From Escherichia phage ST4: 64,000 nt of DNA. The translations under genes and the position numbers were made by a program. This document shows positions 37,611 to 39,522 of this stretch, one piece after another; positions within the stretch are counted from its first letter, which is position 1; each line of letters begins with the position of its first letter. The notes under the pieces were generated by a model. It ran no database searches. It was not told where the DNA came from and saw nothing but the letters and a program-made list of their open reading frames with translations. Location of the stretch: sequence record OM982646. The stretch is one strand, 5' to 3'.

Positions 37611-38813
37611 ATGTTAAACTATAACGCCCCAATTGACGGTCAGAAATCTAGCATTGATGGTGCTGGTTCCGACCAGATGAATACCTATTACTGGCTGAAG
37701 AAAGCTATTATTCAGTCCCGTAAAGACCAGTATTTCATGCCACTGGCTAACACCATTAACATGCCGAAGAACTACGGTAAGACTGTTAAGGTGTATGAGT
37801 ACGTTCCACTGCTTGACGATAAGAACATCAACGACCAGGGTATTGATGCTAATGGTGCTACCATCGTTAATGGTAACCTGTACGGTTCGTCTAAAGACGT
37901 TGGTAACATCACCTCTAAACTGCCTCTGCTGACGGAGAATGGTGGTCGTGTTAACCGTGTAGGCTTTACTCGTCTGTCCCGTGAAGGTTCCATCCATAAG
38001 TTCGGTTTCTTCTACGAATTTACTCAAGAGTCCCTGGACTTTGATTCTGATGACCAGCTGAAAGAACACCTGTCTCGTGAACTGATGAACGGTGCTGTAC
38101 AGTTGACTGAAGCTGTTCTCCAGAAAGACCTGTTGGCTGCTGCTGGTACTGTACTGTATGCAGGTGCTGCTACCTCCGATGCTACCATCACTGGTGAAGG
38201 TTCTACCCCGTCTGTAGTTTCTTATAAGAACCTGATGCGTCTTGACCAGATTCTTACTGAGAACCGTACTCCGACCCAGACTACTATCATCACTGGTTCT
38301 AAACTGACTGATACCAAAGTACTTGGTGGTACTCGTGTAATGTACGTTGGTTCTGAACTGGTTCCAGAACTGAAAGCGATGAAAGACCTGTTCGGCAACA
38401 AAGCATTCATCGAGGTTCAGCACTATGCTGATGCTGGTACTCTGATGAACGGTGAAATTGGTTGTATCGACAAGTTCCGTATTATTCAGGTTCCAGAGAT
38501 GCTGCATTGGGCAGGTGCTGGTGCACAAGTTGGCACTAACCCAGGTTATCGTTCTTCTATGGTTAGTGGTCAGGAACACTATGACGTGTTCCCGATGCTG
38601 GTAGTTGGTGATGACTCCTTCTCTACCATTGGCTTCCAGACTGATGGTAAGTCTGTTAAGTTCTCCATCATGACTAAGATGCCTGGTCGAGAAACTGCTG
38701 ACCGTAATGACCCGTATGGTGAGACTGGCTTCAGTTCCATCAAGTGGTACTACGGTATTCTGGTTAAACGCCCAGAACGTCTGGCTCTGATTAAGACTGT
38801 TGCTCCTCTGTAA
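37611..38813 (+). CDS. major capsid protein
   Basis: 400 aa; AGGAA RBS; strong bias to highly expressed-type codons (ctg, cgt, ggt, aac); followed by a terminator-like hairpin; position after portal and scaffold-like genes. Confidence 0.75.
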
Positions 38814-38832
38814 TAGTCCGAAATAAAACAAG

Positions 38833-38855
38833 GGGGACTTATGTCCCCCTCTTAA
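38833..38855 (+). terminator. terminator/attenuator-like hairpin after the capsid gene
   Basis: gggggac-ttat-gtccccc followed by tctt. Confidence 0.45.
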
Positions 38856-38886
38856 TAAAACTAAATGAACCATAGGAAATACTAAC

Positions 38887-39522
38887 ATGAGCATTAACGA
38901 TAAACCGACCACTGACGTAGAACTGGACGTACAGGGCAACGAAGATACCGTTAACGATATTGCAATGCCTAGCGAGCTTGAAGTTCTTAAGCAACGTGCA
39001 ACGTTGATGAATATTAAGTTCTCTAACAACATCTCCGTTGAGAAGCTCCGTGAGAAGATTGAAGCTGCACAAGCAAAAGATGAACCAGAAGTAAAAGAAT
39101 CTGCTGTTAATCCTTTGGGTGAAAAACAAGAAGCAGGTGTTAAGAAGATGACGCTGGGTCAGAAGATTCGTGCAGAGCAGACTCGACTGATTCGTGTACG
39201 TATCCAGAACCTCGACCCTAAGAAGAAAGACCTGCCTGGTGAGATTATCACCGTAGCTAACGAATATATGGGTACTGTACGTAAGTTTGTTCCTTTCGGT
39301 GAAGTCACCGACAATGGTTATCATATTCCGTACTGTATTTATGAGTTCCTTAAAGAGCGTAAGTTCATCAACATTACGACTCGTAAAGGTAAGAATGGCT
39401 TACCGGATATCCGTGCAACAGAAGCACGAGAGTTCTCCATTGAAGTATTGCCTCCGCTGACTGAAGCAGAATTGGCTCAACTGGCTCAAGCACAGATTGC
39501 TGCTGGTAGCCTGAACGATTAA
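38887..39522 (+). CDS. virion protein (211 aa)
   Basis: ORF with same codon bias as the capsid gene. Confidence 0.5.
   Translation: MSINDKPTTDVELDVQGNEDTVNDIAMPSELEVLKQRATLMNIKFSNNISVEKLREKIEAAQAKDEPEVKESAVNPLGEKQEAGVKKMTLGQKIRAEQTRLIRVRIQNLDPKKKDLPGEIITVANEYMGTVRKFVPFGEVTDNGYHIPYCIYEFLKERKFINITTRKGKNGLPDIRATEAREFSIEVLPPLTEAELAQLAQAQIAAGSLND

Follow-up and report, generated by a model that had tools for sequence, protein, structure and literature searches.

An open antisense frame opposite the major capsid gene of Escherichia phage ST4 is very probably a by-product of codon selection

Opposite the major capsid gene of Escherichia phage ST4, the minus strand can be read for several hundred codons without a stop. 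Is this open reading frame (ORF) a gene, or does it merely mirror the codon choice of the gene on the other strand? We studied this question in a stretch of 64,000 nucleotides from sequence record OM982646 ("the window"). The window is from an N4-like E. coli podophage of the genus Gamaleyavirus (Schitoviridae), with 95–97% nucleotide identity to phages such as E20, F22, PhAPEC7, and G7C; the closest GenBank record is that of E20. The locus has these features:

37611–38813, plus strand: major capsid protein gene (N4 gp56 family), 400 codons; PHROG 1357, Pfam PF25209
37614–37616, plus strand: codon 2 of the capsid gene, TTA (Leu), whose reverse complement TAA is the stop codon of the antisense ORF
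37614–39032, minus strand: antisense ORF, very probably spurious, 472 amino acids from the first ATG; in frame -1, codon-aligned with the capsid gene
38887–39522, plus strand: next late gene, 211 amino acids; PHROG 2130
39159–39161, minus strand: in-frame TGA, the 5' limit of a 514-codon stop-free span

The initial annotation had taken the sense ORF to be the major capsid gene, and this identification is supported by protein families and by the annotation of relatives. The protein matches PHROG 1357 ("major head protein") over residues 1–399 (E = 5e-151) and Pfam PF25209 (E = 6e-9, above the family cut-off), and the 1,203-nt coding sequence is annotated alike in GenBank relatives, under the label "N4-gp56 family." In a collection of 15 billion proteins, an entry identical to the 400-amino-acid protein is the major coat protein of Escherichia phage ST4. 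The gene lies between a gp57-like gene and downstream structural genes, and this gene order is kept in GenBank records. The gene just upstream of the capsid gene (36374–37594, plus strand) belongs to PHROG 2120, "tail length tape measure protein," and has the same name in relatives. This name looks doubtful because the phage is short-tailed, because the gene lies between a portal-sized gene and the capsid gene, and because the N-terminus of its product is very acidic; the position fits a scaffold-like or gp57-like protein.

The minus-strand ORF is present exactly where the initial annotation had placed it, at 37614–39032, with an ATG start and 472 amino acids. The stop-free span around it is longer than was stated there: it runs for 514 codons, from the stop at 37614–37616 to the TGA at 39159–39161. 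Apart from the frames of called genes, no stop-free span in the window is longer; the next ones have 275, 220, and 186 codons. Frame arithmetic from the coordinates places all four of these spans in frame -1 relative to the gene that they overlap.

The antisense ORF is in the same register as the capsid codons throughout, so that antisense and sense codons pair one to one as reverse complements. Because the frames are codon-aligned, antisense stops (TAA, TAG, and TGA) can arise only from the sense codons TTA (Leu), CTA (Leu), and TCA (Ser). In the capsid gene, just one of the 61 leucine and serine codons is of this kind, namely the TTA at codon 2; in the other genes of the window, the share is 4–50%.

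The initial annotation had described the capsid gene as strongly biased toward CTG, CGT, GGT, and AAC, and the codon counts agree. CTG accounts for 76% of its leucine codons (32% in the rest of the window), CGT for 87% of its arginine codons (64%), GGT for 87% of its glycine codons (64%), and AAC for 76% of its asparagine codons (50%). The gene's Nc of 35.0 is the lowest among window genes of at least 100 codons. We also computed the codon adaptation index (CAI) of each gene, which the initial annotation had proposed as a check. As the reference, we used 30 genes of E. coli K-12 (ribosomal proteins, tufA/EF-Tu, fusA/EF-G, and rpoA; 5,215 codons). The capsid gene had the highest CAI of the 56 window genes (0.706; the median was 0.422). 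If leucine and serine codons were left out to avoid circularity, then its CAI was 0.735, and it still ranked first. Furthermore, the enrichment of codons in the capsid gene relative to the rest of the window was correlated with E. coli codon preference (Spearman 0.70, p = 3e-9). The capsid gene lacks 8 of the 15 codons that are rarest in the E. coli reference, and it has no occurrences of ATA, AGA, AGG, CGG, GGA, GGG, CCC, CTA, TCA, ACA, or GTC. The depletion is general and is not specific to the stop-making codons.

The statement that the capsid gene is unlike its neighbors in codon use was correct for one side only. The upstream neighbor is average (Nc 45.1, and a CAI below the top ten), but the two downstream neighbors are also fairly biased (CAI of 0.553 and 0.534, ranks 5 and 7). 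Across the genes of the window, the CAI (with leucine and serine excluded) was related to the share of TTA, CTA, and TCA in the expected direction, but weakly (rho = -0.30, p = 0.04).

To ask how far codon use accounts for the open frame, we held the capsid amino acid sequence fixed and estimated the probability that the antisense frame would be open. With the window's average codon use, this probability was 1.1e-7; with the codon use of E. coli ribosomal protein genes, it was 0.09. The claim that the bias of the capsid gene leaves its antisense strand open is thus borne out by the codon alignment, by the near-absence of TTA, CTA, and TCA, and by these probabilities.

Beyond the capsid stop codon, the antisense ORF extends for another 219 nt, made up of a spacer of 73 nt and 146 nt at the start of gene 38887–39522. 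The 5' end of the ORF overlaps the first 49 codons of this gene in a different relative frame, in which stops need Tyr, His, or Gln codons after particular third bases. Among the first 91 residues of the gene's product, there is no Tyr or His, and Gln occurs only four times. By resampling, the probability of an open frame was about 0.28 over the overlapped part of the gene and about 0.21 over the spacer. The extension is ordinary luck: with Tyr and His missing from the N-terminus of the downstream gene's product, and with Gln scarce there, an open frame is unremarkable.

The host shows this effect as well. In E. coli, frame -1 is fully open opposite tufA (394 of 394 codons), rplB (273 of 273), and rpsC (233 of 233), and fusA has a stop-free run of 528 codons in this frame. 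In contrast, the poorly adapted gsp genes of E. coli have frame -1 runs of only 60–108 codons. Within the window, the gene for the single-strand DNA-binding protein, SSB (PHROG 743; 60531–61328, minus strand) has the second-highest CAI (0.667) and only two TTA, CTA, or TCA codons. It has its own frame -1 antisense span of 220 codons (60504–61166, plus strand), which is a second and smaller case of the capsid effect. Judging from sequence alone, the capsid and SSB genes are the phage's most host-adapted genes and hence are probably its most highly expressed.

The T=9 capsid of N4 contains several hundred copies of gp56 per virion, and the burst of this phage is very large. The capsid protein would be the phage protein that is needed in the greatest amount, and its gene would have been driven toward the codons that the host prefers (CTG, CGT, GGT, AAC, TCT/TCC, and others). 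TTA, CTA, and TCA, which are rare in highly expressed genes of E. coli, would have been lost along with other non-preferred codons, and the whole antisense frame would stay open as a result. The antisense ORF would then continue by luck for 219 nt, across the spacer and the beginning of the next gene. We infer that high expression, together with translational selection, is the cause of the capsid gene's bias, and we consider it very likely that this codon selection produced the minus-strand ORF as a by-product that does not code for protein.

To see if the frame is kept open in related phages, we compared 73 loci with capsid relatives at 45–100% amino acid identity; the counts below are for 14 relatives from the same genus and for 59 distinct N4-like capsid genes. 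Antisense stops are present inside the capsid gene in 9 of the 14 same-genus (Gamaleyavirus) relatives, and their positions vary. In relatives with 93–99% capsid identity, they lie at capsid codons 108, 122, 154, 155, 238, 250, and 376. TCA at codon 108 is common to 4 of the 14 same-genus relatives; it breaks the frame in locus L004 and is found in the GenBank phages E20 and PD205. The frame is broken by CTA at codon 250 in L056 and by TCA at codon 376 in L005 and L062, and phage 24-32N has TCA at codon 155. If the TTA at codon 2 is counted, then L046 has three breaks within the capsid gene (two of them beyond codon 2) and L063 has five (four of them beyond codon 2). In L001, which encodes a near-identical capsid protein, there is an antisense stop in the spacer.

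The frame is open inside the capsid gene in 5 of the 14 close relatives and in 23 of the 59 distinct N4-like capsid genes. This partial openness might be taken for weak conservation, but it follows the G+C content and the CTG share. Over all 59 distinct genes, a higher share of CTG among leucine codons goes with fewer antisense stops (rho = -0.61), and so does a higher G+C content of the locus (rho = -0.79); the relatives that prefer TTA have 13–36 antisense stops. We also noticed that in some G+C-richer N4-like loci (L014, L052, L059, L015, and L071), the antisense-aligned stop-free run is 757 to at least 919 codons long. These runs span the capsid gene and the upstream gene, and some of them reach the edge of the fetched locus.

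Substitution rates between the window and nine close relatives give no sign of constraint on the antisense product. In these comparisons, dN/dS was 1.2–4.1 for the antisense frame and 0.03–0.08 for the sense capsid frame, and changes in the capsid gene are overwhelmingly at sense third positions (2/2/33 by codon position, for example). For the eight closest relatives, dS was 0.13–0.24 in the capsid gene, 0.07–0.16 in the upstream gene, and 0.11–0.25 in the downstream gene, so synonymous change in the capsid gene is not reduced below that of the flanking genes. The high dN/dS of the antisense frame and the undepressed dS of the capsid gene imply that there is no extra constraint on the capsid gene's synonymous sites or on the antisense product.

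Other tests of the antisense product point the same way or do not discriminate. It has no family match in Pfam or PHROG, and if the ORF is read as a gene, its CAI is 0.282, which is near the minimum for the window. By exact look-up, the antisense protein is absent from the collection of 15 billion proteins, which holds the identical capsid protein from three contigs. There is a GGAG 13 nt upstream of the antisense ATG at 39032, which is a longer spacing than usual. A crude estimate for the anti-SD duplex at this ATG is -5.8 kcal/mol, as compared to a median of -4.2 kcal/mol for real genes; this value is within the range of real genes, and the score does not discriminate. We found no sigma-70-like promoter match on either strand of 36300–40500, which is a weak test because, in N4-like phages, polymerases of the phage itself carry out early and middle transcription. 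As a side observation, shuffled sequences gave 6.3 +/- 3.0 such matches where this region has 0, and the late structural region may be depleted of host-promoter-like sequence.

The spacer after the capsid gene contains another element that bears on the antisense strand:

38830–38851, no strand assigned: G+C-rich hairpin with the core GGGGGAC-TTAT-GTCCCCC, located within the antisense ORF in the 73-nt spacer that follows the capsid gene

The hairpin scores as intrinsic-terminator-like on the minus strand, where its tail is GTTTTATTTC, and it sits between the antisense ATG and the body of the antisense ORF. We surveyed the same place in loci L001–L022, L046, L056, L062, and L063. In all 26 of these relatives, a hairpin of -16 to -35 kcal/mol lies directly after the capsid gene, and the stem sequences differ: the hairpin is conserved by position. 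The hairpin of L021 and L022 is a canonical terminator on the plus strand, T-run included, while in Gamaleyavirus the T-run is on the minus strand. The hairpin may attenuate transcription, may stabilize the RNA after the capsid gene, or may stop antisense read-through. Among close relatives, the loop is TTAT in some and its reverse complement, ATAA, in others, which hints that the loop flips within the palindrome.

Could the antisense ORF be a genuine overlapping gene, perhaps a young, lineage-specific one, that is translated from antisense RNA and whose frame is kept open partly by selection? It is the longest non-genic span in the window, its openness is very improbable under average codon use (P = 1.1e-7), and it has an ATG with a GGAG at some distance. 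In LUZ7 and LIT1, which are N4-like phages of Pseudomonas, transcripts of the middle stage run antisense through the late structural genes (PMC9163698), and by analogy antisense RNA over the ST4 capsid gene may well exist. As to expression in N4-like phages, our literature search yielded only this antisense transcription in LUZ7 and LIT1. Some long antisense ORFs of bacteria have been reported to be translated (PMC8850804, PMC9927249), and one GenBank record annotates two fragments of the frame as hypothetical proteins. However, codon bias by itself raises the probability of the open frame to 0.09. In 9 of the 14 same-genus relatives, stops at differing codons interrupt the frame; the antisense dN/dS is above 1 while the capsid gene's synonymous rate is unreduced, and a conserved terminator-like hairpin on the minus strand separates the ATG from the body of the ORF. 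The lack of any Pfam or PHROG family, the CAI of 0.282, the absence of the exact protein from the large collection, and, weakly, the absence of sigma-70-like matches on either strand of 36300–40500 also count against a gene. On sequence evidence, the relatives that naturally carry stops (E20, G7C, and IME11 among them) appear to largely refute this explanation, and we consider it extremely improbable. Just as improbable is a more limited version, in which a stretch of the minus-strand frame (not necessarily all 472 amino acids) would be weakly translated from middle-stage antisense read-through RNA like that of other N4-like phages and would yield a young, lineage-specific peptide in the few phages whose frame is open by chance. 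The initial annotation's statement that the ORF is almost certainly not a gene is well supported by the stops in relatives, dN/dS, the lack of a family, and the CAI.

The frame might instead be open because of base composition or mutational bias, or because the capsid gene is of foreign origin and has a higher third-position G+C, rather than because of selection linked to expression. The capsid gene's GC3 of 0.46 is toward the top of the window's range (0.28–0.50), and among N4-like phages no single variable predicts how many antisense stops there are better than the G+C content of the locus (rho = -0.79). But many of the codons that the capsid gene prefers end in T (CGT, GGT, GCT, ACT, GTT, and TCT), and a plain shift in G+C would not yield the codon-by-codon match to the preferences of E. 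coli ribosomal protein genes (Spearman 0.70). Also, the G+C content of windows at 37–39 kb (0.456–0.459) is near that of many other parts of the window. Recent foreign acquisition is at odds with the capsid gene being syntenic and core in all relatives and with its nucleotide identity to them, which is like that of its flanks. We view composition or foreign origin as very unlikely. As for pure chance, unrelated to codon bias, it accounts for the 219-nt extension (P of about 0.28 x 0.21) and not for the part inside the capsid gene, with its P of 1.1e-7 under the window's average codon use; also, other well-adapted genes of the phage and of the host show the effect in their frame -1. We give chance no credence as the explanation of the open frame.

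The explanation that we favor, codon selection on the capsid gene, describes a phenomenon that is already known, and under it the ORF is a textbook case of a shadow ORF created by codon bias. Mir et al. 2012 (PMC3454372) reported that long ORFs in frame -1 result from the codon use of highly expressed genes, and, as cited there, Merino et al. 1994 and Silke 1997 described long frame -1 ORFs opposite highly expressed genes. Our case resembles these shadow ORFs in its codon-aligned frame, in the avoidance of TTA, CTA, and TCA, and in the host-type bias. It differs in that the mother gene is a late gene of a phage instead of a cellular gene and in that the ORF runs 219 nt past the mother gene; nothing essential differs. 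According to Moshensky and Alexeevski (bioRxiv 10.1101/724807), such ORFs are generally without purifying selection, as judged by Ka/Ks, and antisense ORFs of dnaK entered Pfam as "glutamate dehydrogenase" (PF10712). The dnaK case is similar in that a very long ORF lies opposite a conserved, highly expressed gene, shows no purifying selection, and is prone to enter databases. The dnaK ORFs are widespread enough to have formed a Pfam family, whereas the capsid antisense product matches no family in Pfam or PHROG. The antisense genes of E. coli O157:H7 and Pseudomonas aeruginosa (PMC9927249, PMC8850804) are also long ORFs that lie antisense within an annotated gene, but they rest on Ribo-seq or proteomics and on reported purifying selection, while the capsid antisense ORF is interrupted in relatives and has dN/dS above 1.

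The initial annotation held that an antisense transcript from the ORF would count against its reading. This is too lenient: because antisense read-through is known in LUZ7 and LIT1, a transcript alone would not show that there is a gene, and evidence of translation is needed.

The practical importance of such ORFs is as an annotation trap. The antisense ORF is longer than the capsid gene, and a naive rule that takes the longest ORF chooses it over the capsid gene. A trace of the trap is visible in at least one GenBank record, PV933157.1 (phage 24-32N), in which the hypothetical proteins Gp65 and Gp66 are the two pieces into which the TCA at capsid codon 155 divides the capsid-antisense frame:

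Locus L079, 515–970, minus strand: Gp66 fragment of phage 24-32N
Locus L079, 974–1408, minus strand: Gp65 fragment of phage 24-32N

Gp65 and Gp66 are probably false gene calls. The signature of a frame -1 shadow (no TTA, CTA, or TCA in the sense gene, and a high CAI) helps to keep such false proteins out of the databases.

Two other observations concern annotation. In GenBank OY979416.1 (Klebsiella phage vB_Kpl_K57alpha1.2), the capsid match falls under features named dCTP deaminase, HNH endonuclease, superinfection immunity, and the like, which suggests that the annotation coordinates of this record do not fit its sequence. And in the window, ARAGORN reports a tRNA-Ile with the unusual anticodon AAT and an adjoining tRNA-like gene with an undetermined two-base anticodon (57670–57748 and 57757–57829, minus strand).
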